From Myxococcota bacterium (lineage in GTDB: Bacteria > Myxococcota_A > UBA796): a DNA stretch of 59,737 nucleotides. Both the position numbers and the translations under genes were made by a program. Positions 17,977 to 41,537 of the stretch are shown one piece after another (position 1 is the first letter of the stretch; each line of letters opens with the position of its first letter). The notes beneath the pieces are model-generated. The model was given only the letters and a program-made list of their open reading frames with translations, was not told where the DNA came from and did no database searches. The stretch lies in contig JAYYRF010000850.1 in the NCBI GenBank assembly GCA_036127535.1, forward strand, positions 1 through 59,737. Direction: 5' to 3'.

Positions 17977-17980
17977 GAGG

Positions 17981-19489: not shown

Positions 19490-19492
19490 AAT

Positions 19493-19966
19493 CTAGTGCC
19501 ATGACTTTACGGACATCATTGCGTAGATCAGTAAAATCAAAACCAATTCGACAATAAAACCCCAAAACAAGGACTTACTCGGCGCGCCGCCGACGAGCGC
19601 GACACTCAAATCCGACTTTACCATGCGCTTTGCAGCAACCTCTATCCCTCCCCAACACAAGATAGAGACGAGTACCCACCAAAAAGACAGAATGGATCGG
19701 TTTTGGAATTGCGGATCGGAAAGAAGCCAAATGAAACCGAGGATGAGATTCAAACGACCACCAAAAAGAACGATTCTATGCCCCCACTGCATCATTTTGG
19801 CCAATGGTATCGGATTTTTAGACACCGATAATGCAAACGCAATGTTGACGAGAGAGGCTACAAAAACAAGATTCGCCAAGCCGGAGTGGGAATGAGAGAG
19901 TCCCGTAATCATCTTTCCCAACTGCGCTCCGTCAGTAGCAGCCAGCAAACCAACACAATCTAGCAT
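19493..19966 (-). CDS. Small integral membrane protein (hypothetical)
   Basis: 157 aa with four hydrophobic segments. It lies 3 nt upstream of the methyltransferase gene. Confidence 0.5.
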   Translation of the reverse strand: MLDCVGLLAATDGAQLGKMITGLSHSHSGLANLVFVASLVNIAFALSVSKNPIPLAKMMQWGHRIVLFGGRLNLILGFIWLLSDPQFQNRSILSFWWVLVSILCWGGIEVAAKRMVKSDLSVALVGGAPSKSLFWGFIVELVLILLIYAMMSVKSWH

Positions 19967-20022
19967 ATGCGATCCCCATAAACGTTGTCTGCTCTTTTTA
20001 GCCTACTCTACAAAAAAATCCA

Positions 20023-26064: not shown

Positions 26065-27642
26065 CTACGTCGTGATCATTCGCTCCGAACTCAACCATCG
26101 GCGAAGGAGAGTGGTCGTCATCTCCTTTTTGAGAACCATCTTTCCAGCCATTCCGCCCATTTTGATCATGTTCGTAGCGTTGGCCATTTGAATCAAGGGC
26201 CAAGGATGCTTCCGTAAAATCTCAGATTTTGCCAGTGCAAACAGCAAAGGACGCGGAACAAACTGCTTGGAAAGCATTTGGGTGAGTGCGATCCAAAAGG
26301 TATCTTCTACCGGACGAGGGTAGGAGAGATTAATGCGGTGCTGATTGAAGGTTTTGGTGTTGTCACCTTCTATGTCGTATCGAGATATGAGACCGGATTG
26401 AATGAGCTTGTGGTTGAGTTCTGATCCGGGGAAAACCGTCATAGAAAATAAGTACAGGTCATAAGGATGCGGGAACGTGGCAATCATTTCAAAGAGCTTT
26501 TTCTTGTCTTCTTCTGTAGAGACCGGGTCGTCGAATATCAATTGAAAATGCGGCTTGATTCCGAGCCGATGGTATGTTTCTGCAATATCGGCAATCGTTT
26601 GATTTTTCACCCTTCGGTCGTAAAGGTGTCCTGTCACACGCTCTGAGGATTGCACCCCCATATAAACATTTTTGAGGCCAGCATCGCGCAAAATACTCAT
26701 GCGATGTTCATTGACGAGCTTGGGTTCGATAAAAATCTCAAACGGCAAACCGATCTCTTTGGGATAGATTTTACTGAAGTCTTTGAGCCAGTCCAAGTGA
26801 AAATTAAAGACTTCGTCGTCAAATCGAATGCGTTTGAAATCCCAATGGCCACGCGCCTGTTTGATCTCTTCGACCATCGAAGCGGGAGACCGAACCCGAA
26901 ACCACTTCTGACCGGGATATACGTCTTTTTTATATGTTGAATTGTAGCAGTAACTGCACTTGTAGATACATCCTCTGCTCCCCATCATTTGGAAAACGGG
27001 GTCTCCGTGCATGGGATCCCCTACAACGTAGGAACGGCCGTATATAAAGTACTTTTCATTGTGAGAGGTGTAATCGCGAAAGACGAGGTCATCCAAGTTC
27101 TGAACCAAAGGACGCAAAGAATTTTTAACGACGTCTTCGCCGGATCGACGAAACCAAACGTTCTTACTGTCCAAGAAGTCATCGACACTTTTGGAGTGCT
27201 TTAGGGCATTCATAAAGTCCAAGAGCGCCAGCTCTCCTTCCCCTTTCAGAATCATATCGGTTTTGGAAATGCAATCATCCGGTGCCATCGTCGGATGCAT
27301 CCCACCCCAAAGGACTGGGAGATCCAATTCGTTGTGTAGGAATTCCGTTATGATTTGAGCCTGGTGGGCGTAGGCGCTCGCACGAATCGAGAGTGCTGCC
27401 AAATTGAGTTCTTCACGACGAATGATACGTGCCAGGTTTTCGAGCTGCGCGTCGGATGCCGCTTCTAGGGAATTGGAGATCCAATCCTTGAAGTAAATCT
27501 CCACGACTTTGAACCCCGCTGCTCGCAAGGTCGCCGCCAGGATCCGAACCGCATTGTTCTCTACGTCCCACAAAGAGATGATCCCCAGGCGCGGCTCTTC
27601 CAAACGCGCATTTCTTTGTAATCGCTTTAAACGATGCAACAT
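26065..27642 (-). CDS. B12-binding-domain radical SAM protein (class B), paralog of 9396-10958
   Basis: 525 aa. Contains GIISLWDVENNAVRILAATLRAAGFKVVEIYFKDW (B12 domain), LWGGMHPT and SRGCIYKCSYC. It appears collinear with the 520-aa protein along its whole length. Confidence 0.85.
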   Translation of the reverse strand: MLHRLKRLQRNARLEEPRLGIISLWDVENNAVRILAATLRAAGFKVVEIYFKDWISNSLEAASDAQLENLARIIRREELNLAALSIRASAYAHQAQIITEFLHNELDLPVLWGGMHPTMAPDDCISKTDMILKGEGELALLDFMNALKHSKSVDDFLDSKNVWFRRSGEDVVKNSLRPLVQNLDDLVFRDYTSHNEKYFIYGRSYVVGDPMHGDPVFQMMGSRGCIYKCSYCYNSTYKKDVYPGQKWFRVRSPASMVEEIKQARGHWDFKRIRFDDEVFNFHLDWLKDFSKIYPKEIGLPFEIFIEPKLVNEHRMSILRDAGLKNVYMGVQSSERVTGHLYDRRVKNQTIADIAETYHRLGIKPHFQLIFDDPVSTEEDKKKLFEMIATFPHPYDLYLFSMTVFPGSELNHKLIQSGLISRYDIEGDNTKTFNQHRINLSYPRPVEDTFWIALTQMLSKQFVPRPLLFALAKSEILRKHPWPLIQMANATNMIKMGGMAGKMVLKKEMTTTLLRRWLSSERMITT

Positions 27643-27701: not shown

Positions 27702-28184
27702 CTACAAGCCGTCTTCCTCTTTTTGAACCCAGATCGGAGACAATTTCACACGTTGACGTGCGAATAAACAATTTCCGCTCCCTTTTTCAAAGTCTCTGCA
27801 GCATCTCGGACGATCGACATAAATCCGACAACGATTGTCTTCTTGTAGAGCCATACAAAAATTTCCTTCCCTCCGACGAACCCCCCAGCGCCCCTCCTGC
27901 TTGAACAAAAGTTTTGGATGTTTTTTACGAACCGGATCTTTTACCGACACCTCAACGGCATCAAACGATGGGCCGCAACAGGCAGCACAGTCCAAACAGT
28001 CTACCTCTGGCTCCCAAAAAGAGCACCCCCGCCACTCGGCCTTAACCCTCTTCGATCCGGACGGAACGCATCGGAGAACCTTTGGACCCGGCCCTGCTTT
28101 TTTCGACCAAAAACAAGAACCACATGTCGTTTTACAGCTACCCCAACTCAACCCCAACGGATGCATCTCTTTTCCCTCGTACAT
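27702..28184 (-). CDS. YkgJ-family Cys-cluster protein (CxxCxxCC putative Zn/Fe-binding domain)
   Basis: Contains CLDCAACC plus the downstream C.ALQEDNRCRIYVDRPRCCRDF, the family signature. It lies upstream of and co-directional with the third radical SAM gene (59-nt gap). Confidence 0.8.
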   Translation of the reverse strand: MYEGKEMHPLGLSWGSCKTTCGSCFWSKKAGPGPKVLRCVPSGSKRVKAEWRGCSFWEPEVDCLDCAACCGPSFDAVEVSVKDPVRKKHPKLLFKQEGRWGVRRREGNFCMALQEDNRCRIYVDRPRCCRDFEKGSGNCLFARQRVKLSPIWVQKEEDGL

Positions 28185-28204
28185 TCGCGATTATCTTTTG
28201 TGGC

Positions 28205-28681
28205 ATGAAATTCATTACCGTGCAAATCGATGTAGACGGAAAGAAGGATCTCTCGCTTCCCGTCCCCATCCCCCCGCAAGATTTGACAAAAAGAATCTAC
28301 TACGCACTGGCTTCCTTTGGAGGAATTGCTTCTGCGCGTTCTGTACATGTGTTTTTTCCGAACATTCCCTTCTCTCAATTCAACCGGAAGTTAAAGAGCC
28401 GCCGTACCATACAGTCCTTAGGAGGAGGATACTACGCACTACGCGGGATTCCCGTTCTTCCTCTCCAAGAGTGGTTCATACGTCTGCTTTGTCACAAAGA
28501 ACCTCTTTCAGAAGAGGCCTGCCTACAAGAAATAATGAATTATTACCCCCACGGCGATACCATTGCAATCCGATCATGGTTAAGACAACGTCCCGTAGGC
28601 AGTATCCGCATACGAAATTTTTTTTACGCCTCTCCGCGGAAGGAGTCCAACAATGCCGTATCTCGAAAGACTCTTGATTAA
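28205..28681 (+). CDS. Hypothetical protein
   Basis: 158 aa from the internal ATG at 28205. The upstream part of the track ORF is antisense to the YkgJ gene. No motif recognised. Confidence 0.45.
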   Translation: MKFITVQIDVDGKKDLSLPVPIPPQDLTKRIYYALASFGGIASARSVHVFFPNIPFSQFNRKLKSRRTIQSLGGGYYALRGIPVLPLQEWFIRLLCHKEPLSEEACLQEIMNYYPHGDTIAIRSWLRQRPVGSIRIRNFFYASPRKESNNAVSRKTLD

Positions 28682-29716: not shown

Positions 29717-29792
29717 CGCATTCGCTCTCCATCATTTGTTAGACGTATGACACTCTTTGGGCTATTATAGCCTTCCACGGCAGGAGTGCGGA

Positions 29793-30416
29793 ATGAAAAT
29801 ACTGGGTTTAGATGAGGCGGGAAGAGGGTGTGTCTTGGGCTCGCTGTTTGTCGGAGCTTGCTGCTGTTTGGACACCCAAATCAAGACCGTTGTTGAAAGC
29901 GGTGCAACCGACTCTAAAAAGCTCAGCGCTAAAAAGCGAGAAAAGATACTGGGGGTCTTGGAACCCCTGGTTCAAACACGCCACTTGAGCATCTCGCCAA
30001 CGGAGATCGACAACGGAAACATCAACCAACTCGAGGAGGAAGCGTTTATCGATCACATCGTGCATTTCGAACCCGATGTCGTGTATATCGATGCGCCGGT
30101 ACATCCCAACGGCATACCCGCATTTGTTCGTCGAATGAAAGAACAACTGCATCGTTCCGGAATCAAGGTGCCGAAATTGATCGTCGAACCCAAAGCGGAT
30201 CTCACCTATCCAATTGTCGGTGCCGCGAGTATTGTTGCAAAGGTACATCGCGATCGCTCGATCAAGGCGCTGGGAGAAGTCGGCTCCGGTTATCCCAGCG
30301 ATCCGAAAACACGGTCTTGGATTAAAGGCTTTTTAGAGAGAGGAGAAGAACTACCTTCTTCGGTACGTACCCGATGGGGAACAGTTGCTTCCCTACGAGC
30401 AGAGTGCAAAAAATGA
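29793..30416 (+). CDS. rnhB: Ribonuclease HII
   Basis: Begins MKILGLDEAGRGCVLGSLFVGA (DEAGRG catalytic motif) and contains DSKKLS and ASIVAKV.RD. An AGGAG lies 6 nt upstream of the ATG at 29793. Confidence 0.9.
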   Translation: MKILGLDEAGRGCVLGSLFVGACCCLDTQIKTVVESGATDSKKLSAKKREKILGVLEPLVQTRHLSISPTEIDNGNINQLEEEAFIDHIVHFEPDVVYIDAPVHPNGIPAFVRRMKEQLHRSGIKVPKLIVEPKADLTYPIVGAASIVAKVHRDRSIKALGEVGSGYPSDPKTRSWIKGFLERGEELPSSVRTRWGTVASLRAECKK

Positions 30417-31102
30417 GCCTGGGCGTCGCCATACCGATGTACAACGAAGAAGGCAACTGCGAGCGTGTGATTCAACGATGCATCTCCCACCTCAGCGAAT
30501 CCAATATCGAATTTCATCTTGCGGTTGTCAATAACGGCTCCAACGATGGTACCGGCCTAATTTTGGAAGACTTCGCTCGTAGAGAGAGTCGTTTAATCGC
30601 AATCCATCTATCGGAGAATCAAGGGTACGGCGGCGGAATTTTGGCCGGACTCAATAATTTGATTCTCAAGAAGCCGGAGATTATCGGTTGGACATGGGGA
30701 GACGGACAAGTCTGCTCCACCGTCTTACCCAAACTCTACGCTGAGTGTAAGCGCGGAGCTGATATCGCCAAAGCATGTCGAATCCAAAGACAAGACGGAT
30801 ATCGCAGAAGAGTCATTTCGAAAACCTATGCGGGCGCAATCAAACTGATCGGTGCACGCAGCGCAGATGTGAACGGATGTCCCAAACTTTTTCGCACAGA
30901 AGTATACCGAGATCTTCATCTGACCTCCACCGACTGGTTTATAGATGCAGAAGCAATCCTCAAAGCGGAAAAACAAGGTCGAAGCATCTATCAAGAGCCC
31001 GTAATTATGGAGCCAAGAGCCTTCGGAAAAAGCAAGGTAAAAGCGCAGACAATTTTGGAATTCACTAAAAATATCGCTTTATGGAATCTGAAAAAGCACT
31101 AA
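30413..31102 (+). CDS. Family 2 glycosyltransferase (polyprenol-phosphate sugar transferase/DPM1-like)
   Basis: Contains VAIPMYNEE, VVNNGSNDGT, ENQGYGGG and ..GDGQ... The ATG at 30413 overlaps the rnhB stop (ATGA). Confidence 0.85.
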   Translation: MSLGVAIPMYNEEGNCERVIQRCISHLSESNIEFHLAVVNNGSNDGTGLILEDFARRESRLIAIHLSENQGYGGGILAGLNNLILKKPEIIGWTWGDGQVCSTVLPKLYAECKRGADIAKACRIQRQDGYRRRVISKTYAGAIKLIGARSADVNGCPKLFRTEVYRDLHLTSTDWFIDAEAILKAEKQGRSIYQEPVIMEPRAFGKSKVKAQTILEFTKNIALWNLKKH

Positions 31103-31488
31103 TCTCGTGGTGGAGTTGGCCGGCACGTCAACAACCCGTGCGATCTGTCTTTGCGTGGCTCATCATCCTTGTATCCATTTTCCTTTGCTCGAAATGGAGT
31201 TTTTTTCTATCCCTCGGAATTAGCGTCGCATTGATATCTTCACTCTCTGAAGTGCTCCTACCCACGCTATACCAAATCAAAAAGATGCATATCTCGGTCT
31301 ACTCCTTGCATATCCACCGCAGTATTCCGTGGGCGCAAGTTAAAGCCGTAAAACAAAAAGAACGCGGCTTCTTATTGACGATTGACGCATATCAAGACCG
31401 GAAGAAGAATCTCTTTCTCTATTGCAATTCGAACAAAGAGAAAATAGGATTGGTTCTAGAGCAAAAAATCGTTGAGAATCAAACGTGA
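31081..31488 (+). CDS. Small membrane protein (2 TM + soluble tail), hypothetical
   Basis: 135 aa. A hydrophobic hairpin (VFAWLIILVSIFL / FFLSLGISVALISSL) is followed by a ~70-aa soluble segment. It overlaps the GT2 gene by 22 nt. Confidence 0.5.
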   Translation: MESEKALISWWSWPARQQPVRSVFAWLIILVSIFLCSKWSFFLSLGISVALISSLSEVLLPTLYQIKKMHISVYSLHIHRSIPWAQVKAVKQKERGFLLTIDAYQDRKKNLFLYCNSNKEKIGLVLEQKIVENQT

Positions 31489-31769
31489 ACAAAATCACCA
31501 TAAGCCAACCTGAACTTGAAGCCGTCGATGAAGTACTCGAATTTATCATACGGTTTGGACTGACCGTTCCTGCCATATTGACACTGGAAACGCTTCGTCC
31601 TCTCTCTCGCATGGGCGCGCAATTTATGCACATCCTAACCCCCTCGATCTGCGTATTCCTCTCCCCCTCCCACTGGACTTCCTTTGCAGAACTATTGGAA
31701 CAGCCGGGCGGCTTGGATCATATACTCTCTCGCCTAGAATTCCTCGATCGGAAAGCACAAATCCAATGA
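31485..31769 (+). CDS. Hypothetical 94-aa protein
   Basis: The GTG start overlaps the previous stop (GTGA) and the stop overlaps the next ATG (ATGA). No motif recognised. Confidence 0.45.
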   Translation: MNKITISQPELEAVDEVLEFIIRFGLTVPAILTLETLRPLSRMGAQFMHILTPSICVFLSPSHWTSFAELLEQPGGLDHILSRLEFLDRKAQIQ

Positions 31770-33586
31770 GTACAACACCCGAGAATGACTTTCGCAGTAT
31801 TCTTGCGACCGATTGCGGATCTACGACCACGAAAGCCATCCTAATTCAAAAAATTGACGGTGTTTATCGCCAAACCTACCGCGGAGAAGCGCCAACAACC
31901 GTCGAAGCGCCCTTTGAAGACGTTACACGTGGCGTGCTCAACGCTGCCCAAGAAATTGGGGAGTTAATGGGCAGAAAGATCGTTCGCGACGATGGTTCGG
32001 GTATTATCACCCCTGAAAAAGAATCCGAAGGTGTCGATATTTATATTTCTACCTCTTCTGCGGGTGGTGGATTGCAAGTCGTGGTTGCGGGGGTCGTGCG
32101 CTCGATGACAACCGAATCTGCCATGCGGGCTGCCCTCGGATCGGGTGCGATCGTAATGGATGCTTTCTCAACCAACGATAAACGGCCGCCACACGAGCAA
32201 ATCGAAAAAATTCGACAGCTTCGTCCGGACATGATCCTTCTCGCGGGTGGGGTCGATGGCGGAACCGAAAAGCATGTCATTGCGCTGGCGGAGCGAATTT
32301 GTGCGGCTCAGCCCCGCACACGACTCGGAGGCGACTTCAATCTACCCATCATCTTCGCCGGCAATAAACAAGTGAGAGAACCGGTATCCAAACTGCTCGA
32401 AGACATTTGCGCGCTTGAGATCGTGGACAACGTTCGCCCCGTCATGGAAAAAGAAAACCTCGCGCCGGCGCGCGATAAAATTCACGATTTGTTCATGGAG
32501 CACGTCATGGCCCAGGCACCGGGCTACGGAAAACTCATGAAGTGGGTCTCCACACCGATTATGCCCACACCGGGTGCGGTGGGTCAAATCATGAAAACCA
32601 TTGCAGAACAGCGAAAAATCAATATTCTCGGTGTCGATATCGGTGGAGCAACCACAGACGTCTTTAGCGTCTTCGACTCCATTTTTAATCGAACCGTCTC
32701 CGCGAATCTCGGTATGAGCTACTCCGTAAGCAATGTGCTCGCAGAAGCCGGACTCGCACACGTTCTTCGTTGGATCCCCTTTCGCATCGACGCAAAAGCA
32801 CTCCGCAACCGAATCGGAAACAAAATGATTCGGCCGACCACCATTCCCCAAACGCTGGAAGAGCTTCAGGTAGAACAAGCGATTGCCAGGGAAGCACTCC
32901 GTTTGGCGTTTATCCAACACAAAACATTTGCTGTTGGGCTCAAAGGCGTCCAAAAACAGCGTGGAATTGCGGACGCTTTCGCCCAAGAAGGAAGCGATAC
33001 CATCGTACAGATGATGAACTTGGATCTAATCGTTGGCTCCGGTGGAGTTCTTTCCCATGCTCCCAGACGCGCACAGACGATGCGTATGCTCATCGATGCC
33101 TATCAACCAGAAGGTTATACCGAGATTGCCGTCGATTCCATTTTTATGATGCCGCACCTCGGCGTCCTATCGACCATTCACCTACAAGCAGCCACAGACG
33201 TCTTTGAAAAAGACTGTTTGGTCTACCTCGGATCTTGTATCGCACCTATCGGAGACTTTGACGAAAAGAGTCCCTTGCTCAAACTTCATCTCACGCTCCC
33301 CCAAGAACCCGAGATTGAAGAAATCCTTTCCTTTGGAGAGCTATATTTTTGGTCTTTGGCGGAGGGACAAGAGGCAAATGTTCGCATTACCCCCCTCCAA
33401 AACAAACTCGATTTGGGTAACGGACCCGCTCAGCCGATCTCGTTGAAAGCAAAAGGAGGAAAGGTTGGACTGGTTATAGACACGCGCGGACGACCGATTC
33501 GGTTTCCCCACAACCCAGAAATACGTACCCAAACCTTATACAAATGGTGCTCTTCGATGGACGAGTATCCTGAAGGAGAGCGTTAG
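31766..33586 (+). CDS. GlmL/MutL-like ASKHA (actin/Hsp70-fold) ATPase, long form
   Basis: 606 aa. ILATDCGSTTTKAILI (phosphate-1 motif as in glutamate mutase component L), LLAGGVDGG, LGVDIGGATTDVFSV (second DxGG.TTD phosphate motif) and VGSGGVLSHAP. Confidence 0.7.
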   Translation: MSTTPENDFRSILATDCGSTTTKAILIQKIDGVYRQTYRGEAPTTVEAPFEDVTRGVLNAAQEIGELMGRKIVRDDGSGIITPEKESEGVDIYISTSSAGGGLQVVVAGVVRSMTTESAMRAALGSGAIVMDAFSTNDKRPPHEQIEKIRQLRPDMILLAGGVDGGTEKHVIALAERICAAQPRTRLGGDFNLPIIFAGNKQVREPVSKLLEDICALEIVDNVRPVMEKENLAPARDKIHDLFMEHVMAQAPGYGKLMKWVSTPIMPTPGAVGQIMKTIAEQRKINILGVDIGGATTDVFSVFDSIFNRTVSANLGMSYSVSNVLAEAGLAHVLRWIPFRIDAKALRNRIGNKMIRPTTIPQTLEELQVEQAIAREALRLAFIQHKTFAVGLKGVQKQRGIADAFAQEGSDTIVQMMNLDLIVGSGGVLSHAPRRAQTMRMLIDAYQPEGYTEIAVDSIFMMPHLGVLSTIHLQAATDVFEKDCLVYLGSCIAPIGDFDEKSPLLKLHLTLPQEPEIEEILSFGELYFWSLAEGQEANVRITPLQNKLDLGNGPAQPISLKAKGGKVGLVIDTRGRPIRFPHNPEIRTQTLYKWCSSMDEYPEGER

Positions 33587-33587
33587 T

Positions 33588-34712
33588 ATGGCTATCTTTA
33601 CGCCTGGGCTCAAGGTTTCGGATCGAACGCTTCTGGTGAAAACGCGACGATTACCCCTCAAAGGAGAAGTTCTCGTTCAAAAAGGACAACGTGTAAAAGC
33701 ATTTGACATCATCGCCAAGACGGAACTGCCCGGTAAAATTTACCCTATCAATATCGCAAATCAGCTCGGTGTCCCCGCATCACGACTCAAAGAAGCGATG
33801 CTTAAGGATATTGGAGACCGCATTGTTGAAGGAGAATTGATCGCGCAAACCAAGGGTTTCATGGGACTCTTTCGATCAGAGTCCCACGCTTTGGTCTCCG
33901 GAACCATACAGAGCATCTCCCCCATCTCCGGAGAAGTTATTATTCAGGCAAATCCTATTCCCGTGGTTATGGATGCATATGTAGACGGACTGGTCGTCGA
34001 TGTCTTGGAAAATGAAGGCTGCTCGATTCAAACATCCGCATGCCTTGTGCAGGGTATCTTTGGTTTGGGAGGAGAAGTACAAGCACCTCTTCAAATGGGT
34101 GTTCAAAGTGCCGGTCAGACCTTGGATGCCAGCCAAATCCTCGATAACATGAAGGGTCATATCGTTGTTGCCGGCGCATTTGTGACCAAAGAAGCGGTAC
34201 AAAAAGCGATCGATGTTGGAGCAAAAGCGATTATAACCGGTGGCTTCGATTACAACGATATCAAAGACTTGCTGGGCTATGAGGTTGGTGTTGCCATTAC
34301 CGGCTCAGAAGAAATCGGTATTAGCATTATGGTCACCGAAGGATTCGGTGAAATTGCAATGGCGCCGAAAAGCTTCTCTCTACTAAAAAAATACGACGGC
34401 TATCAAGCTTCTCTGAATGGTTCTACCCAAATTCGAGCCGGCGTCATCCGTCCCGAGGTCATCATTACCCATACAGAAGATGATCTACCCAAAGAGCGAT
34501 GGAATCCCCCAGAACCCAAAGGCATTCAACTGGGGGATCGCGTGCGCGGGATTCGTTCACCCTACTTTGGAAAACTCGGCTTTGTACATGCACTCCCCAT
34601 ATCCCTAGAAACCATGCCTTCGGAGACCAAAGTCCGCGTTCTCGAAATTCAATTCGATGATGGAACCATTGCCACCGTTCCCAGAGCCAACGTAGAGAGC
34701 ATAGAAGAATGA
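33588..34712 (+). CDS. Hypothetical soluble protein with barrel-sandwich-like N-terminus and KOW/SH3-like C-terminus
   Basis: 374 aa. The N-terminus (LPLKGEVLVQKGQRVKAFDIIAKTELPG) resembles single-hybrid-motif (biotinyl/lipoyl-like) hairpins. The C-terminus (GDRVRGIRSPYFGKLGFV...VRVLEIQFDDGTIATVPRANVE) resembles a KOW motif. It starts 1 nt after the GlmL-like stop. Confidence 0.55.
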   Translation: MAIFTPGLKVSDRTLLVKTRRLPLKGEVLVQKGQRVKAFDIIAKTELPGKIYPINIANQLGVPASRLKEAMLKDIGDRIVEGELIAQTKGFMGLFRSESHALVSGTIQSISPISGEVIIQANPIPVVMDAYVDGLVVDVLENEGCSIQTSACLVQGIFGLGGEVQAPLQMGVQSAGQTLDASQILDNMKGHIVVAGAFVTKEAVQKAIDVGAKAIITGGFDYNDIKDLLGYEVGVAITGSEEIGISIMVTEGFGEIAMAPKSFSLLKKYDGYQASLNGSTQIRAGVIRPEVIITHTEDDLPKERWNPPEPKGIQLGDRVRGIRSPYFGKLGFVHALPISLETMPSETKVRVLEIQFDDGTIATVPRANVESIEE

Positions 34713-36130
34713 TATACTTGCTTTGGATGCTCCTTTGTTTCACGCATGCCCGCGAAGCGCTGATCCCCATTGAAAGCGTAACGGTAGCGGCACCTCCAAA
34801 CGATAGTGGCACGCACTTGACGATCTCTTGGCGCTTGCGAAACGATACTTTTTTTCATGTCGTGAACGACCAAAATCAGATCGTACAAACGCTTCCGCAC
34901 CACGCGCGCAGCCTGTCTATATCCGACTCAAAGACCGCCAAGAACTGGATGGTGTACGCCCTGAATGATCCGTCTCCATCCCTGCAGCAAGTCTTGGCAG
35001 AGGGAACATCGCTATCGTTGGCGAATGATACAGACAATCTCTCTTGGTCTTGGCCAGGCCTCAGACAAGGATACGCCGTTCTACGATGTACACCACAAGG
35101 AAACCATAATTGCGAAGATCACAGAGGCAATTGGTCTGTCGTCCGAAAAGGCATCTCCCCTCTCGATCGCTCCTACGAAGATGTGGTCTCGAACAATCCT
35201 CTGCAAGATCCGATACGCGAACGCTACGCCTATCGCGTGGTGACGCTGCCGGTAGAGTATGCCAACGATACAAAAATCGATTTTTTCTCTCTCCTACTCA
35301 ATTACGGCTCCTCGTCGAGCACCGCATTTGGAACGCCACAGGCAACGTGGTGGAAAAATATACCCGGAATCTACACGCTCCTTTTCTTTATCTTTGGCAC
35401 AGGTGGCCTAATTTTCTTCTTTACGGCCCAAGCCCAGCGCGGAAAGAAACTGACCATTCGTAAAATACCGGGTATAGACGCCATAGAGGAAGGAATCGGT
35501 CGCGCCACCGAGATGGGAAAACCGGTTTTATATGTTCCGGGTATCGAGTCCCTTGAGGATATCCAAACCATCGCTTCGATGCTGATTTTGGGAGAAGTGT
35601 CGAAAACCATCGCGGAATATCAAAGTGATGTCATCGTATCGTGTATGGTACCCATCGTGCGAGAAGTTGCAGACGAAGTGGTGAAATCAGGCTACTATCG
35701 CGCCGGGCACCCCGATGCGTACGATCCGACATCCGTACGCTTCATCTCCTCCGACCAATTCGCTTTTTGCGCGGGAACCAATGGGATCATGTATCGTCAA
35801 AAACCAGCGACCAATATCTACTTGGGTCGATTTTTCGCAGAATCACTCATTTTAGCGGAGACCGGATTTGCCAACAAAGCCATTCAAATCGCCGGAACGG
35901 CTGAGGTTACCCAACTTCCCTTCTTTTTGGCAGCCTGCGACTATACCCTTATCGGTGAGGAACTTTTCGCGGTATCGGCGTATCTATCCGATGATCCACG
36001 ACTCTTATCTTCGCTCAAGGCTTCAGACTGGATCAAAATCGTCATCATTGTCTTTCTTTCCTTGGGTGTAATCGCTGCCAGCTTTGGCTCCACGATTTTT
36101 CACCAACTTCTCAGTATTTCTCAGGGCTAA
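34709..36130 (+). CDS. Membrane protein: signal peptide, ~200-aa exported domain, TM, ~200-aa cytoplasmic domain, C-terminal TM
   Basis: 473 aa with an ATGA overlap to the previous gene. Hydrophobic segments are at the N-terminus, at IYTLLFFIFGTGGLIFFFTA and at WIKIVIIVFLSLGVIAASFG. Confidence 0.6.
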   Translation: MIYLLWMLLCFTHAREALIPIESVTVAAPPNDSGTHLTISWRLRNDTFFHVVNDQNQIVQTLPHHARSLSISDSKTAKNWMVYALNDPSPSLQQVLAEGTSLSLANDTDNLSWSWPGLRQGYAVLRCTPQGNHNCEDHRGNWSVVRKGISPLDRSYEDVVSNNPLQDPIRERYAYRVVTLPVEYANDTKIDFFSLLLNYGSSSSTAFGTPQATWWKNIPGIYTLLFFIFGTGGLIFFFTAQAQRGKKLTIRKIPGIDAIEEGIGRATEMGKPVLYVPGIESLEDIQTIASMLILGEVSKTIAEYQSDVIVSCMVPIVREVADEVVKSGYYRAGHPDAYDPTSVRFISSDQFAFCAGTNGIMYRQKPATNIYLGRFFAESLILAETGFANKAIQIAGTAEVTQLPFFLAACDYTLIGEELFAVSAYLSDDPRLLSSLKASDWIKIVIIVFLSLGVIAASFGSTIFHQLLSISQG

Positions 36131-36133
36131 TCC

Positions 36134-36772
36134 ATGCGAACAACCATCCCTCTTTTTTTTGGATTTGTGGTCGGCTTCTTTATGCTGGGAGACTACTTTA
36201 TTCCGCACTGGACTTACCAACTCATCAAGGGCTATATTCTCGAGTTTGGAACACTTTTGGCCTCCACTGCCTTTTTATTGGGCATTATCAACCTCATACA
36301 AGTCAATCTTCCCAAGATCATCGCGCGCGAAAAAGACTGGTTTTACAAAGTCGTCATGCTTGTGAGCATGGTGATCACCATGGTTTTTGGATTTGTAGAG
36401 GGGGGTGCGAGAATGGACGACGACCAAATATACAAATGGATTTTCGACTACATCCTCACACCGTTGAGCGCTACGATGTTTGCACTCCTCGCTTTTTATA
36501 TTGCCTCTGCTGCGTTTCGCGCTTTTCGTGCTCGGAATGCGGATGCCACCATTCTCTTGATTGCTGCCTGCATTATGATGCTCGCTACCGTTCCGGTAGG
36601 AGAGCAAATCCCTTTTTTCGGGGATTATCTCCTCCACTTGAAAAGTTGGCTCATGGACGTTCCCAACGTCTCTACCCGTCGCGCCATTTTTGTCGGCGCT
36701 GCTTTGGGAACCATTTCAACGGGCTTGCGAATCCTCCTCGGGATTGAGAGATCTCATCTGGGAGGAGATTGA
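36134..36772 (+). CDS. Polytopic membrane protein (hypothetical)
   Basis: 212 aa with about six hydrophobic segments. 3-nt gap from the previous gene. Confidence 0.6.
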   Translation: MRTTIPLFFGFVVGFFMLGDYFIPHWTYQLIKGYILEFGTLLASTAFLLGIINLIQVNLPKIIAREKDWFYKVVMLVSMVITMVFGFVEGGARMDDDQIYKWIFDYILTPLSATMFALLAFYIASAAFRAFRARNADATILLIAACIMMLATVPVGEQIPFFGDYLLHLKSWLMDVPNVSTRRAIFVGAALGTISTGLRILLGIERSHLGGD

Positions 36773-37635
36773 TGCGCCAATTTCTGTTTTCTCTTCAAAA
36801 GCTCGATCGTAGAATAATCTTTGTGGGTATGGCGCTGTCCATTTTTATCCCCCTTCTTCTGCCGTTTTCCCTACCCTTCAAAGTCAGTAAGGAAGTACAA
36901 GCAACGTACGACCAAATCGAAGCCCTTCCCAAAGGTGCACCCGTTTTGATTTCCGCTGATTTCGATCCGAGTTCCATGCCCGAGCTGTGGCCTTTCTTTC
37001 AGGCCAATCTTCATCATATGTTCGCAAACGATCTCAAACCGGTCTTTGTGACACTGCTTCCCACTGCTCCCCCCTTGATATGGCCAGAAATCAAAAAGAC
37101 CGCGTCCCTATACAAAAAACAATATGGTGAAGACTATGTCTTTTTGGGGTACAAAGACGGGAAAGAGCTGGTCATTAAAAACATCGGACAAAACATCCCC
37201 CAACAATTTCCACAAGACTACCGCGGAACCCCCATCGCATCGCTCGAAATGATGCAAGGCATCAAACAGGCGAAGGATTTTCCCATGCTCATCGCAATAT
37301 CGGCGGGCTTTCCAGGCATAAACGAATATGTACTGCAAATTCAAGGTCTGTACAAACTACCCATGATCGGTGCCTGTACAGCTGTGAGCGGCCCAGATTA
37401 CATCCCCTTCTTCAAATCCAAACAGCTTCTGGGTCTGAGTATGGGAATTCCCGGATCCGCCAAATACGAACGACTGGTTCAGTCAAAGGAGAATGTTCAA
37501 CCATTTTCGGCGACCGGAGCCAAAAGTCTAAATGTATTGAGTCTCAGTCATCTCTACATCATATTCTTAATCGTAATTGGTAATTTTGCGTACTTCATGA
37601 CACGCGATATGGAGGACGAAGATGGACCCGGTTAG
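36769..37635 (+). CDS. Membrane-anchored protein with soluble domain related to that of 34709-36130
   Basis: 288 aa. Start is TTG at 36769 or ATG at 36772, overlapping the previous stop. N- and C-terminal TM segments flank a soluble domain. GAPVLISADFDP and IGACTAVSGPDYIPFF echo GKPVLYVPGIES and IAGTAEVTQLPFF in the 473-aa protein. Confidence 0.6.
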   Translation: MMRQFLFSLQKLDRRIIFVGMALSIFIPLLLPFSLPFKVSKEVQATYDQIEALPKGAPVLISADFDPSSMPELWPFFQANLHHMFANDLKPVFVTLLPTAPPLIWPEIKKTASLYKKQYGEDYVFLGYKDGKELVIKNIGQNIPQQFPQDYRGTPIASLEMMQGIKQAKDFPMLIAISAGFPGINEYVLQIQGLYKLPMIGACTAVSGPDYIPFFKSKQLLGLSMGIPGSAKYERLVQSKENVQPFSATGAKSLNVLSLSHLYIIFLIVIGNFAYFMTRDMEDEDGPG

Positions 37636-38710
37636 CATCTACGAAATCATCGGTGTTTGGGTATCCATTTTCTTAACCCTGACCGTTTTCTCCTTTTTGT
37701 ATGACGACAATCCGATCTACAAGCTCTCGGAGCATATTTTCATGGGCGTCACGATCGGCTATGGGATCAGCGAATCATATTGGGGTGTCTTCAAGCCGAA
37801 TTTGCTCGACAAACTCTTTGTATGGGAAGATGGGCAATTTGCTGGGGAAAGCATCTACTTTCTCGCGTTGCTCTTGTGTGTTTTGCTTCTCTTCAAAGCA
37901 ACATCAAAATGGAGTTGGCTCGCACGAATTCCCATCGCCATTCTCGTATCCGCCTACGCTGCCCTTAAAATTACAGGAGAAACAACGGCGAAACTCATGC
38001 TGCAACTGCAAGACTCTATGCCTGACCTCCATACTTCTTGGAATCGCCATGGAATCTGGGACTGGTCGAATGACGGAGCCGGCGTTTTCTCTGACACCTT
38101 CTTGGTGATTAGCTTGATGGCGATTCTTCTCCACTTCTACTTCAGCAAAATCCCTTCCAAGACCGAAAAGTGGGGATATCCACTCGCAGGCATTTTCTTT
38201 TTGCTGTGCTTTATCGCGTGTTTCTTCCTCTCGCCTCTCCAGGATAGTCTCATTGGGTCGCTCATCGTCTCTCTCTCGCTGGCATCGTGCGCCGCGATGC
38301 CATTTTTGGCGATTTCCCCCGCTCGAAAATCTCTCTCTCGATTTGGGGTTTGGGTTTTGATGCTGAGCTTTGGCGCCTCCTTTGGTTTTACCGTTATGGG
38401 TCGCGTATCTTTGGCGATCGGTCGAGCCCAAGAGTTACTCGGGCATAATATGTCCACGGAACGCGCAGAACAAGTCATGCCCCAAACAGCATCGTTTGTC
38501 TCCCTTCTTGTGATCGCTATTTCTCTCTTTTGGTGGTCAAGAAGGAAGAAAGATACAGAGATCGCATGTAGACTTTCTTTACAGCAGTGGGCGTTCTCTT
38601 CCTTTCGATTCCTTTTTGGATTTGGTTGCAAAGCCTCCATGAATCTTTGTTGGGATTTTGGTCTTTGCCGTTGGGAATCGCGCAATTTTGGCTCGCTGCG
38701 TTCAATCTGA
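37622..38710 (+). CDS. Polytopic membrane protein (hypothetical)
   Basis: 362 aa with 8 or more hydrophobic segments, overlapping the previous gene by 14 nt. The last ~40 residues look non-native, so the true end is uncertain (see overlap with the next gene). Confidence 0.55.
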   Translation: MDPVSIYEIIGVWVSIFLTLTVFSFLYDDNPIYKLSEHIFMGVTIGYGISESYWGVFKPNLLDKLFVWEDGQFAGESIYFLALLLCVLLLFKATSKWSWLARIPIAILVSAYAALKITGETTAKLMLQLQDSMPDLHTSWNRHGIWDWSNDGAGVFSDTFLVISLMAILLHFYFSKIPSKTEKWGYPLAGIFFLLCFIACFFLSPLQDSLIGSLIVSLSLASCAAMPFLAISPARKSLSRFGVWVLMLSFGASFGFTVMGRVSLAIGRAQELLGHNMSTERAEQVMPQTASFVSLLVIAISLFWWSRRKKDTEIACRLSLQQWAFSSFRFLFGFGCKASMNLCWDFGLCRWESRNFGSLRSI

Positions 38711-39585
38711 TTCTCGCATTTGTATGTCGCATCTTTTCCAAAAAACCCGCAATTTGGATCACAATGGGAATGATAAACCTGTTCATACTCATGGAAGATG
38801 TTCGATTGTACACCGGAGATACGGAAGGGATTCCTATGATGAGCTGGAATCTGAATGCACCGCAAAAAAAAGAGATGGACTGCGTCTTGCCCGTCATACA
38901 GCAGTGGGAGCAAGTCAATCCGGATGGCCTCATTTTCTTACAAGAAGTGAGCGAGAGAAATTTTCAACGCATTATGGACGAGACCAGCTTGTTGTGTATG
39001 GGAGCGAGTTATCACCCCATCGATAGCTGCCGAAATCGAAAAAAAGAAACGTGTCCGGGGCTGGCGATCTGCGCGGCGAAAAATTGGTCTTTTCGCCGTC
39101 CTCATCACAAGAATTTTCAAGATCAACGAAATTATGGCTACTTCCAAACCGAACTGAAACCCCCGGGAGAGAACGAATACTTCAACGCCCTTAATATTCA
39201 TCTGGAGAGCCTTTGGAGAACCCGCTACGAACTCAAAACCCAAAATATGACGGAGCTTTTGCATCAAAATACACTGCGACAACACGAGCAACTGGGTAAA
39301 ATCGAAAAGGTTCTCTCTATTCTCAAGGATCCGGTTCTTTTGGTTGGTGACTTTAACTCCGTCAGCAGTATGTGGCTTCACCGCCACCTTCGCACCAATC
39401 TGATCGATGCCCACCGCTTTAGTGGTATGGGGTTCGGCATTAGTGCAAAAAGATACTCCATACCGATAAGAGTCGATCATCTTTACATTCAGGCACCGAT
39501 GAGGTGGAGTGGAGAAACACGCGTCCTACATCAGCACACCTGTTCCGATCATTTTCCGATTACGTCTTGGTTTTCCCTACGCTAA
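38587..39585 (+). CDS. Endonuclease/exonuclease/phosphatase (EEP) family protein with N-terminal membrane anchor
   Basis: Contains LIFLQEV, VGDFNS and the terminal CSDHFPITSWF (the catalytic His motif of the EEP fold). The N-terminal 60 aa are hydrophobic. Start is uncertain: GTG at 38587, or ATG at 38764 which would remove the anchor. Confidence 0.8.
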   Translation: MGVLFLSIPFWIWLQSLHESLLGFWSLPLGIAQFWLAAFNLILAFVCRIFSKKPAIWITMGMINLFILMEDVRLYTGDTEGIPMMSWNLNAPQKKEMDCVLPVIQQWEQVNPDGLIFLQEVSERNFQRIMDETSLLCMGASYHPIDSCRNRKKETCPGLAICAAKNWSFRRPHHKNFQDQRNYGYFQTELKPPGENEYFNALNIHLESLWRTRYELKTQNMTELLHQNTLRQHEQLGKIEKVLSILKDPVLLVGDFNSVSSMWLHRHLRTNLIDAHRFSGMGFGISAKRYSIPIRVDHLYIQAPMRWSGETRVLHQHTCSDHFPITSWFSLR

Positions 39586-40561
39586 GGCACTCCATCATAA
39601 TTTCCAAAAGGGCATCTTCCCCATCCAACCACGGCCTTTGTATCATGCGACGCGATACACTCATGGCCTGGACATCTTGTATATACGCCGGCGGTAGTGA
39701 CTCATCGAGGCAAAAGAGAGAAAGACGCTTTTTTAGCGCGCGTGCCATTCCCACTTCAAAGGCACAAAAAGATGAGCGAAGAAAGGCTTGGGAAATCGCA
39801 AAAAACAAGATTTCTGAATCTCGAATGGCTTTTTCAATCGTTTCATACCAATTGCTTCCTTGTCGAATCGAATCCGAACACACAAAAATATCCGCCTGAA
39901 AATATCGGCGCATATAATTCACCACCGGGAGGAGAATGTGTTCATCAGCAACCGCATGCGAGAGAAAGATTTGCGGAATCGCGGCAACCGACGTATTCGT
40001 CTTGTTCGGTTCCAGAGCCAAGAGTTGCGCCCAAAGAGAGCCGATGCCCTCATCTCGCAACAGATGTGTCGAATAAAAAGGCCCCAATTGTTGTAGAAAT
40101 ATTGGATCACAACCAATGGCAACCAAGTGAACCCGAGCCGCTAAAATACGCTCTTTTTCAACGAGTAAACGCTCGAAGTCCGTTCCATCACAGACAATCC
40201 ACAAATCGTTGCACCGCAACATTTCGTTCACCCGAGAACTGTGTATCGCACCCAGGCGATACGACCACTTCTCCGCCAAAGAGAGGTAGTGGGAGACGGA
40301 CAGAATGACCGTGTCTTTGGTCTTTACTTGTGGCGGAGCACAGGACCAACCTTTTTCCGTGTGAGAACCATCACACACCGGAAAAAGCCTCGAGCGCCCG
40401 CACACGCATCTTCGATCCACTCTGCCTCCTTTGATTGTCGCGTTATCAGTGTACTGCAAACGAGCGACAGGCAGATGATTATTCTTGATATTCAGAAGAA
40501 AGAGCCCTCTCCCAGTCGTATATACAGCGAAACCCAATGGTTCCATCAAAATGCGGAACAT
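39560..40561 (-). CDS. CDGSH iron-sulfur motif / linker domain / TIR-like domain fusion protein
   Basis: Residues 52-67 are CVCGRSRLFPVCDGSH, an exact CDGSH signature. Residues ~197-290 are IFLSHAVADEH...GSNWYETIEKAIRDSEILFFAISQAFLRSSFCAFEVGMA, the bacterial TIR pattern including the conserved Glu. The start is uncertain (40459-40561) because the first 28 codons overlap the FGE gene out of frame. Confidence 0.75.
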   Translation of the reverse strand: MFRILMEPLGFAVYTTGRGLFLLNIKNNHLPVARLQYTDNATIKGGRVDRRCVCGRSRLFPVCDGSHTEKGWSCAPPQVKTKDTVILSVSHYLSLAEKWSYRLGAIHSSRVNEMLRCNDLWIVCDGTDFERLLVEKERILAARVHLVAIGCDPIFLQQLGPFYSTHLLRDEGIGSLWAQLLALEPNKTNTSVAAIPQIFLSHAVADEHILLPVVNYMRRYFQADIFVCSDSIRQGSNWYETIEKAIRDSEILFFAISQAFLRSSFCAFEVGMARALKKRLSLFCLDESLPPAYIQDVQAMSVSRRMIQRPWLDGEDALLEIMMECLSVGKTKT

Positions 40562-41537
40562 GTCCCCAAAAGATCGTATCCAATCTCACTTGCTCTCCCG
40601 CGTAATACGCACCTCCAACTTTGGCTGCGATCGGCTCTTCATCACGTTCTTGCACAACCTCGATCTGTGCACGGGTTCTGTCGTCGTCCCATACCAGCCG
40701 GATTGGCAGCATCTCGGTTGCGCTTGCCATTCCTGATATCAAAGATGGCATTAAATACCCTTCTCCCGGCAAATCGGAACGGAACGGTTCTGCGGTGACC
40801 GCATACAATCGACCTTCCTCTTGCGAGAAATACTCGAAAGACAAACCGACGGTAAAAGGAACAAAATCGTCTAACGCTCCCTCTTCTAATTTTAACAGGC
40901 CGTCTTCTACCAACAAGGAAAGTCCCTCCTCTTCCCGCGCCGCAAACCAACGCTCGATATCTACGCGATTTCCAGAATCAACCCACTCCCAAAGGTTTCC
41001 GATTTGATCCCACACTCCAAAAGGGCTCTGACACGAAGAAAGAGAAGCACAAGGCTGCACACCATCCCAATTCAAACCCTCTCCGGGCAGGACACATTCA
41101 CCGTTGGGAAGCGAATCACCCCACGGATATGCGAATCCTCCTTCCCCATAGGTTCCATCGCCGGCGTCCTTCCATTCCGCGAAGGTTGGCAAGCGCATAA
41201 ATGCACCCGCTTGTTCAACCCACGTGTTTTCACAAAGCGTCTGCGCCCGGTAAAAAGAAACATTGGAGGCGGGAAGCACCCCGACTTCTGAAAGTGCCTG
41301 CTCTTCAAAAAATGCACTTTCACACTGCATGATACAAAACTGAGGATCATCGATGGGAACGGGAACCGTTCCCATCGAGCACGAGCGTCCTACGTCTTGC
41401 TCTTCGCCGTCCTCCGAATCTTCGACCTCATCCTTCTCTTCCTCCGGTGACTGTTGAGAACCGGGAGGAAGCAGCTCTTGAGAGGTAGAGCAAGCTGCCC
41501 AAAGCCAAAGATATCCCATGCCCTGTCTCCTCCCCAA
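40479..41537 (-). CDS. Formylglycine-generating-enzyme (SUMF1/FGE-sulfatase) domain lipoprotein
   Basis: Lipobox LWLWAACS followed by an acidic low-complexity linker. Then RLPTFAEWKDAG, YPWGD, GNLWEWV and the terminal GTIGFRC, which are hallmark FGE-domain motifs. Confidence 0.85.
   Translation of the reverse strand: MGRRQGMGYLWLWAACSTSQELLPPGSQQSPEEEKDEVEDSEDGEEQDVGRSCSMGTVPVPIDDPQFCIMQCESAFFEEQALSEVGVLPASNVSFYRAQTLCENTWVEQAGAFMRLPTFAEWKDAGDGTYGEGGFAYPWGDSLPNGECVLPGEGLNWDGVQPCASLSSCQSPFGVWDQIGNLWEWVDSGNRVDIERWFAAREEEGLSLLVEDGLLKLEEGALDDFVPFTVGLSFEYFSQEEGRLYAVTAEPFRSDLPGEGYLMPSLISGMASATEMLPIRLVWDDDRTRAQIEVVQERDEEPIAAKVGGAYYAGEQVRLDTIFWGHVPHFDGTIGFRCIYDWERALSSEYQE

Follow-up and report, generated by a model that had tools for sequence, protein, structure and literature searches.

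The window analysed here is the whole 59,737-nucleotide (nt) stretch of contig JAYYRF010000850.1, from a metagenome-assembled genome (MAG) of a Myxococcota bacterium. Positions 29,793-39,585 hold eleven plus-strand open reading frames (ORFs), here called g1 to g11, and both the ORF list and our own translations place all of them at the coordinates given in an earlier sequence-only reading, which had described one eleven-gene unit built around a GlmL-like ATPase. Seven of these genes, g4 to g10, form a set that is conserved across bacterial phyla and probably encodes an ATP-driven membrane complex acting in phospholipid or envelope biogenesis, a function assigned by association. The eleven genes are as follows.

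29793..30416, + strand: g1, rnhB (RNase HII); PF01351, E=5.5e-35
30413..31102, + strand: g2, family 2 glycosyltransferase (GT2); PF00535 Glycos_transf_2, E=2.3e-16
31081..31488, + strand: g3, small membrane protein of 135 amino acids (aa) in which a hydrophobic hairpin is joined to a soluble tail
31485..31769, + strand: g4, small soluble core protein, 94 aa
31766..33586, + strand: g5, long ATPase of the GlmL/MutL family with the ASKHA (acetate and sugar kinase/Hsc70/actin) fold, 606 aa; PF13941 MutL
33588..34712, + strand: g6, soluble partner, 374 aa; AlphaFold2 (AF2) model and sub-threshold RnfC_N match
34709..36130, + strand: g7, DUF6754 protein, 473 aa; PF20539, E=4e-102
36134..36772, + strand: g8, inner-membrane protein with six transmembrane (TM) helices, 212 aa; hydropathy and positive-inside pattern
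36769..37635, + strand: g9, bitopic-hairpin protein, 288 aa; hydropathy and charge
37622..38710, + strand: g10, polytopic inner-membrane protein, 362 aa; conserved motifs
38587..39585, + strand: g11, membrane-anchored endonuclease/exonuclease/phosphatase (EEP) phosphoesterase, start codon uncertain; PF03372 Exo_endo_phos

The overlapping chain begins with rnhB, and its junctions are as claimed: ATGA at 30413, a 22-nt overlap at 31081, GTGA at 31485, ATGA at 31766, a 1-nt gap at 33587, ATGA at 34709, a 3-nt gap at 36131-36133, and overlaps at 36769-36772, 37622 (14 nt), and 38587-38710 (124 nt). The domain calls for RNase HII, GT2, the MutL ATPase, the barrel-sandwich/KOW protein g6, and EEP were all reproduced, as was the hydropathy-based topology of g7-g10, in which two of the proteins are polytopic and the other two have a large domain with a TM helix on either side. 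Ten junctions of 3 nt or less are not by themselves proof of function; it is synteny across phyla that shows the arrangement not to be a product of chance.

This synteny was examined by scanning 185,579 species-representative genomes with an alignment of the ATPase, which returned at least 582 relatives, of which the best 80 were fetched. The genome set comprised 81 loci, and a further 87 were added later, for 168 in all. The eleven window proteins were used as tblastn queries against the genome loci, and colinearity was scored on the 55 genome loci having at least 6.5 kb of downstream sequence. Carriers among the best 80 are MAGs labelled Nitrospira/Nitrospirota, Brocadia/Kuenenia, other Planctomycetota, Latescibacterota, Zixibacteria, Marinimicrobia, Eisenbacteria, Ignavibacteriales, CSSED10-310, and 'Deltaproteobacteria', and the ATPases of these relatives are 60-72% identical to the window protein across phyla. 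Cluster look-ups extend the family to MAGs of Bacillota, Chloroflexota, and Riflebacteria/Ozemobacteraceae, and the module is spread over at least a dozen bacterial phyla.

Co-conservation of the core genes had been set beforehand as a test of the earlier interpretation, and it was found: g6, g7, g8, g9, and g10 are colinear on the same strand in 45 of the 55 well-covered loci, including those from Nitrospira, Latescibacterota, Marinimicrobia, Planctomycetota, Eisenbacteria, and CSSED10-310. The partner g6 was found in 77 of 81 genome loci. The small protein g4 was detected in 53 of 79 genome loci and 34 of the 87 later ones, and its gene either precedes that of the ATPase or separates g6 from g7. 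Upstream of g4, g3 is present in 11 of the 81 genome loci and in seven metagenome loci, and is an optional accessory of the module. No tblastn or blastp match to rnhB, GT2, or EEP was obtained in the 81 genome loci or the 87 further loci; these three genes are therefore regarded as passengers of this lineage's operon. The general idea of an uncharacterised ATP-driven machine thus survives from the sequence-only reading, but its boundaries do not, and the conserved unit is g4-g10 only (31485-38710), with g3 in a minority of loci and g1, g2, and g11 as passengers.

The order of the genes is not always the same. A Chloroflexota-like contig (L084) reads DUF6754, g8, g9, g10, ATPase, g6, with g9 forming the C-terminal end of a 1081-aa protein, and a Riflebacteria contig (L085) reads g7, g8, g9, g10, ATPase, g6. 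Since the same six families are kept in these two loci despite the reshuffled order and an ATPase identity of 32-37%, they are strong evidence for a single functional system. Three metagenome contigs (L103, L114, L158) carry two tandem ATPase-g6 pairs, with g3 and genes for Peptidase_S58 and/or Peptidase_M20 ahead of them; g7-g10 are not adjacent, and the pairs are a paralogous expansion of the soluble module. PADLOC gave no match for g3-g11, no relatives were seen in viral contigs, the matches on plasmids were all to true GlmL, and there is no sign that the module is mobile or defensive in origin.

Within the module, the ATPase g5 is predicted to serve as motor or enzyme. It matches PF13941 MutL over residues 12-484 with 428.5 bits (cut-off 27 bits, E=4e-128), and hmmscan at E<=0.1 returned MutL and Hydantoinase_A only. 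The phosphate motifs DCGSTTTK and DIGGATTD reported earlier are present, with D16 in the DxG and D291 in the DxGG motif, and 68 diverse representatives of the long form all retain DxG, DxGG-TTD, and GSGG, as expected of intact ATP-binding sites. Beyond the family domain, g5 continues into a further C-terminal domain of ~120 aa, which is conserved within the long clade. A library of representatives at 50% identity gave 722 clusters at E<=1e-30; the best 150 of these are long forms, ATPase-g6 fusions, or fragments, and none (0/150) is of the 460-aa GlmL type. Two representatives with long N-terminal extensions (P0245, P0250) look like gene-call fusions, to a TSP3 repeat and Peptidase_M1, and are uninformative. 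Profile and single-sequence searches of g5 against Protein Data Bank (PDB) chains gave nothing significant, and PDB sequence searches found no solved structure for any MutL/GlmL family member, GlmL included.

Although g5 shares its Pfam family and ASKHA fold with GlmL/MutL (PF13941, NF040745, and also NF040744, a GlmL-related ornithine-degradation protein) as well as the phosphate-1 and phosphate-2 motifs (DxGSTTTK, DxGGATTD), its identity to genuine GlmL is only about 28%, with a range of 25-31%. GlmLs from plasmids and chromids (26-30% identical) align solely to g5 residues ~12-483, and g5 falls below the cut-offs of both the GlmL equivalog NF040745 (230.6 bits against 475) and the GlmL subfamily TIGR01319 (163.2 bits against 204.05). 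With its added C-terminal domain g5 has 606 aa, compared to 461 aa for GlmL of Peptoclostridium acidaminophilum. The operon of the latter is glmS-glmL-glmE-mal, and real glm operons have neither g6 nor the membrane set. No tblastn match to glmE or methylaspartase was found in the 59.7-kb window or the 168 loci, and a GlmS-like B12 domain was matched in just one of the 168. The earlier statement that no B12 mutase lies nearby is borne out, though a B12-binding radical S-adenosylmethionine (radical-SAM) protein (PF02310, PF04055) is encoded on the other strand, 4.1 kb upstream of the cluster (26065-27642, - strand); its gene is the sole cobalamin-related one near the cluster here. In a Brocadiales MAG (L053), a radical-SAM homologue (819-2285, - strand) is divergent and just upstream of g4. 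The proximity of radical-SAM genes to the cluster may be coincidence. Judged on sequence and gene context, g5 is not a GlmL orthologue. The annotations 'glutamate mutase L' and 'methylaspartate mutase' are almost certainly wrong for this clade, being an over-annotation in view of the scores under the cut-offs, the low identity, and the lack of glmE and methylaspartase.

Hydantoinase A, 5-oxoprolinase, and the acetone carboxylase beta subunit (PF01968) belong to a sister branch of the same ASKHA clade. The match of g5 to PF01968 is local, covering only 46 residues around the phosphate-2 motif (E=1.5e-5). A HyuB-type partner is not present, and nothing in the module points to a small-molecule substrate.

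The soluble partners of the ATPase are less easily placed in families. No Pfam or NCBIfam family was found for g4, and its apparent association with a Memo-like protein in Nitrospira proved to be an artefact of clustering. In the AF2 model of g6 (predicted local distance difference test, pLDDT, 86.2), a barrel-sandwich hybrid at the N-terminus is followed by a central alpha/beta domain and then by a KOW/SH3-like barrel at the C-terminus. With this model, Foldseek returned domain-level matches to KOW (NusG/Spt5), Tudor, and PA-type domains with no whole-protein analogue, and sequence and profile searches of g6 against PDB chains gave nothing significant. Weak matches of g6 were to Biotin_lipoyl and RnfC_N (22.4 bits, cut-off 25.6). 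Residues ~54-140 resemble the N-terminal barrel-sandwich of RnfC/NqrA (RnfC_N E=1.3e-4; 7zc6_C E=0.014), but this match is below the Pfam cut-off, g6 lacks flavin, NADH, and Fe-S modules, the window scans found no other Rnf or Nqr domains or genes, and neither RnfC nor NqrA is in the top 50 of the Foldseek search with the whole g6 model. In five Nitrospirota loci (L016, L018, L032, L048, L081) LipA, lipoyl synthase, is directly upstream of g4, which is of note because of the lipoyl/biotinyl-like barrel-sandwich domain of g6; no canonical lipoyl-lysine motif was seen in g6.

Natural fusions join these proteins to the ATPase. An ATPase-g6 fusion occurs in 42 of the 150 best representatives (for example P0105), and one g4-ATPase fusion was found (P0268). 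Taken as direct evidence, these fusions indicate that g4, g5, and g6 form one soluble cytoplasmic ATPase complex.

The four membrane proteins form a set that faces both sides of the membrane. One of them, g7, has a signal-like N-terminus, a periplasmic FN3-like beta-sandwich, a TM helix (220-238), the DUF6754 domain, and a second TM helix (442-460); residues 224-467 match PF20539 with 341.2 bits (gathering score 27). The DUF6754 domain is placed in the cytoplasm because it is preceded by a TM helix and then a K/R-rich stretch. It is extremely conserved, and the cytoplasmic domain of g7 spans residues ~245-430. The periplasmic domain is missing or far larger in some lineages (the L084 protein has 253 aa), which suggests that the conserved business end of g7 is cytoplasmic and membrane-embedded. 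Some g7 homologues are annotated FN3, and Foldseek with g7 gave FN3-type fold matches only. In g8 there is a conserved motif, ...ASAAFRAFRAR.... The N-terminal peptide of g9 (residues 1-20) lies in the cytoplasm and contains a DRR motif that is invariant; two TM helices follow, with ~215 aa of periplasmic domain between them. The motifs LYxDNPxxKxxEH and FGAxFGxxxMxRxSLxIGR are conserved in g10, which has 362 aa here compared to ~250 aa in homologues; residues ~176-240 and 304-362 are lineage-specific, and a ~60-aa insertion (window 38150-38340) is missing from the homologues.

The earlier view that none of the membrane components matches a nameable family holds for g8, g9, and g10, which have no Pfam family (Pfam scans of 28 g9 and 24 g10 homologues were also empty), but not for g7, although DUF6754 is itself a family of no known function. 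A profile match to a characterised transporter family had likewise been set beforehand as a test, and none was found for g7-g10 in Pfam, NCBIfam, or PDB sequences; profile searches of all four against PDB sequences gave no significant relative. A relationship between the g7 and g9 domains was considered and rejected, as hhalign across all components found no internal paralogy.

The indication of a likely substrate comes from the genes around the cluster in other genomes. A cdsA, pgsA, plsY, or diacylglycerol (DAG)-kinase-like gene was counted where it lay on the same strand within 2.5 kb, and among 165 loci such a phospholipid-synthesis gene was found in 27. In two Marinimicrobia-like groups, cdsA (PF01148) is 0-36 nt upstream and co-directional; the ATPases of the two groups are 65-69% identical to each other, and the groups differ further upstream, one having a DAGK_cat/YegS lipid kinase and the other PyrD and RlpA. 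The L088 lineage also has cdsA upstream, and its ATPase-g6 fusion shares 57-60% identity with all the others. In several Nitrospira loci pgsA (PF01066) and plsY (PF02660) immediately precede the cluster, and in other Nitrospira loci they are a few kb distant. The gene for a CDP-alcohol phosphatidyltransferase overlaps the ATPase start codon in L086, and a DAG-kinase-like gene is the divergent neighbour of the cluster in L084. By our own estimate, adjacency to one of a handful of single-copy genes in a genome of ~4,000 genes is expected by chance in <<1% of cases per independent lineage, and since the linked genes stand for four enzymes of a single pathway and are seen in at least four lineages, chance linkage is unlikely. 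Lipid or glycan remodelling, transport, and a cytoskeletal anchor had all been offered as functions for the cluster; from the neighbourhoods with cdsA, pgsA, plsY, and DAG kinase, we infer that lipid is to be favoured among them. Another context with a lipid or envelope flavour is that of L107 and L109, where a long-form ATPase with no recognisable g6 is followed by an AAA-lid protein, a 352-aa protein of unknown type, a polyprenyl synthetase, and a phosphoglucosamine/phosphomannomutase.

The central idea of an ATP-driven envelope or membrane machine around a GlmL-like ATPase, apart from any glutamate mutase, is supported by the co-conservation and by the lack of a transporter-family match. 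The reading tentatively preferred, at somewhat short of an even chance, is that g4-g10, with g3 optional, make up an ATP-driven two-part membrane machine whose most likely substrate would be a glycerophospholipid or its precursor; most of the confidence in this combined reading belongs to the machine in the membrane and less to the lipid. One part would be the cytoplasmic soluble complex of g5, g6, and g4, and the other an inner-membrane platform of g7, g8, g9, and g10. The ATPase complex may dock on the cytoplasmic DUF6754 domain of g7, on the N-terminal DRR motif of g9, or on both, and ATP binding and hydrolysis would then drive a conformational cycle of the platform that performs work in or across the cytoplasmic membrane. 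If the gene neighbourhoods are a guide to the substrate, that work would be the movement of freshly synthesised lipid, by translocation, extraction, or hand-over, in the course of membrane and envelope biogenesis. In this MAG, rnhB, GT2, and EEP have joined the translationally coupled operon and stand outside the conserved machine. A narrower form of the proposal, in which g4-g10 would be a phospholipid flippase or lipid exporter acting directly downstream of CdsA, PgsA, and PlsY and powered by an actin-fold ATPase of the GlmL branch, is rather unlikely.

Several observations weigh against the preferred reading. The window itself has no phospholipid-synthesis gene flanking the cluster, and in no component can a domain that binds or modifies lipids be recognised. 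Hydantoinase A and GlmL, the closest relatives of the ATPase to have been characterised, are enzymes or chaperones, not motors. Evidence for function is guilt by association throughout, docking of g5 and g6 on g7 or g9 is entirely conjectural, and the AF2 model of the DUF6754 domain (pLDDT 30-60) is uninformative, the N-terminal domain of g7 being modelled confidently. The soluble genes g4-g6 have no adjacent g7-g10 in 8 of the 55 well-covered genome loci and in several metagenome loci, and ~15-20% of loci retain g4-g6 alone, frequently beside ATP-binding cassette (ABC) transporters; anammox bacteria, Zixibacteria, Ignavibacteriales, and Bacillota are among the carriers of this reduced set. 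In such cases the soluble part may have different partners, or g7-g10 may be encoded at another site. In addition, the solute-binding protein (SBP) SBP_bac_5 of an Opp-type importer is encoded within 2.5 kb in 12 loci, and Peptidase_S58, Peptidase_M20, and GcvP adjoin the cluster in a few. Both the Opp linkage and the loci that have no adjacent membrane genes weigh against a simple lipid story.

These same neighbours are the basis for an unlikely but far from negligible alternative, that the module is an accessory or energiser of transport for a non-lipid cargo (a peptide, glycan, or other solute), with g4-g6 plugging into g7-g10 in the majority of lineages and into ABC systems in the rest. 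The Opp-type importer is nested in the cluster in L022 (11792-17985) and L150 (3122-7408), where SBP_bac_5 and two permeases are inserted between the ATPase and g6 (in L022 with a DUF772 transposase between the two permease genes), and it brackets the cluster in L039 and L133, where the SBP and permeases are upstream and an oligo_HPY ATPase follows g10. Loci with only the soluble genes adjoin a range of other ABC systems: g5-g6 are translationally coupled to an ABC_tran and FtsX pair in a Bacillota MAG (L082), ABC-2 permeases are found in L087 and L092 and MsbA-like half-transporters in L115, and Wzm/Wzt and glycosyltransferases lie beside the cluster in anammox loci. The peptidases and GcvP would also suit a cargo of this type. 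However, ABC systems carry their own ATPases, the types seen are heterogeneous, with the MacB type as well as importers and exporters, genomes are in general rich in ABC genes, and g7-g10 match no transporter family. Linkage to the lipid genes is tighter, with junctions of 0-36 nt, and involves four enzymes of one pathway.

A membrane-tethered actin-like scaffold or switch in the style of PilM, FtsA, or MreB, anchored by g7 and g9, is quite improbable; here g5 would polymerise or switch with its nucleotide state and would organise an envelope process (cell shape, division, or the positioning of synthases) instead of moving a substrate. It would account for the ASKHA fold with intact nucleotide motifs, for the very high conservation, which is typical of cytoskeletal proteins, and for bitopic partners with periplasmic domains; the DRR motif of g9 recalls by analogy the binding of PilN to PilM. 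In one 5.2-Mb genome (L083), mreB-mreC-mreD (17576-20027) are 3-5 kb from g4-ATPase-g6-DUF6754, with a bactofilin gene upstream. This MreB neighbourhood is limited to that single locus, however, g5 gives no Pfam match to the PilM, FtsA, or MreB families, the frequent covalent fusion to g6 would be unusual for a filament-forming actin, and the hydantoinase/GlmL branch, to which g5 belongs, is not known to contain a filament former. Very improbable indeed is a GlmL-type role for g5 as reactivase or chaperone of a cobalamin enzyme encoded elsewhere, the membrane proteins being either unrelated or engaged in cofactor handling. Membership in PF13941 and the identity of g5 to genuine GlmL agree with such a role, as do the radical-SAM B12 genes upstream of the cluster here and in L053 and a MetH gene near the cluster in L086, but B12-related neighbours are found in only 2-3 of ~168 loci. 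The GlmL cut-offs that g5 does not reach, the missing mutase genes, the extra C-terminal domain, and the obligate partner g6 and membrane set, which are absent from real glm operons, all point away from it.

The remaining features of the operon and its surroundings concern the passengers and the limits of the transcription unit. The automatic ORF of g1 begins at 29757, and the ATG at 29793 yields MKILGLDEAGRG. The best NCBIfam match of g2 is a partial one to the ArnC type (57.8 bits, cut-off 529 bits). The hydrophobic segment of g3 comprises residues 27-63, and the protein has a weak YcxB-like match (E=0.008). The phosphoesterase g11 scores 36.2 bits against PF03372 (cut-off 24.5, E=7e-9), and its N-terminal hydrophobic helices form the anchor; its GTG start has no Shine-Dalgarno sequence, and several in-frame TTG starts lie downstream. 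Although the 124-nt overlap of g10 and g11 was reproduced, it is doubtful at both edges because the last ~55 aa of g10 are not conserved and the GTG of g11 lacks a Shine-Dalgarno sequence; of the two readings across 38587-38710, one is probably not translated as drawn. Promoter and terminator scans gave the same counts as in shuffled sequence. Within g10, at 38280-38302, a unique and perfect 10-bp GC-rich hairpin is followed by a T-run; it resembles an intrinsic terminator, yet its position is within the g10 reading frame. Across the whole window there is no tRNA, no tmRNA, and no Rfam family at the gathering threshold. GT2, EEP, and a nearby RmlD agree with a broad envelope context, as do Wzm/Wzt and the glycosyltransferases of the anammox loci.

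Three neighbouring genes are not part of the cluster:

27835..28677, + strand: 280-aa ORF with no Pfam family, flanking the region and not conserved with the cluster
39560..40561, - strand: protein with CDGSH iron-sulfur zinc-finger and TIR domains and weak ThsB-like PADLOC matches, convergent to the EEP gene; possibly an isolated TIR gene with a role in defence or signalling
40479..41537, - strand: FGE-sulfatase-domain protein, flanking the region and not conserved with the cluster

Few unannotated gene sets are as conserved as this module in the lineages behind the global nitrogen and carbon cycles, such as Nitrospira, anammox Planctomycetota, Marinimicrobia/SAR406, Latescibacterota, and marine Myxococcota, and five of its seven proteins are in families with no characterised member. 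A wrong 'glutamate mutase L' label would produce false calls of glutamate fermentation in metabolic reconstructions of these organisms. If the linkage to cdsA, pgsA, and plsY reflects function, the module would be a testable candidate for the movement of newly made phospholipids in bacterial membranes, and would link an actin-fold ATPase to membrane work in a new manner. The flippase or exporter form of the proposal, if true, would define a new class of membrane motor, neither ABC nor P-type ATPase, and the first defined mechanistic role for the GlmL/MutL family.

Full-text literature searches with family names, accessions, and annotation terms together with carrier taxa returned nothing relevant on the module, and no paper mentioning DUF6754 was found. 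Like PilM-PilN-PilO(-PilP), FtsA-FtsN, and MreB-RodZ, the module combines a cytoplasmic actin-fold protein with bitopic partners having periplasmic domains and with polytopic partners; this is an analogy only, as g5 has no sequence relation to these proteins and the module has no pilus, secretin, or divisome genes in its neighbourhoods. Type VII ABC systems (MacB, FtsEX, LolCDE) share the concept of cytoplasmic ATP hydrolysis passed through TM helices to periplasmic domains, but the fold of their ATPase is ABC while that of g5 is ASKHA, and g7-g10 have no similarity to FtsX or MacB. With Mla, MCE/Pqi/Let, and AsmA-like bridges only the proposed role is common, that is, glycerophospholipid movement at or from the inner membrane; Pfam and NCBIfam scans gave no homology to the module, and the ATPase class differs. 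Because tests of membership fail except for MutL and DUF6754 at the Pfam level, and the resemblance to PilMNO and MacB is architectural only, the g4-g10 system appears to be new in kind, with its proposed function in the membrane inferred rather than demonstrated.

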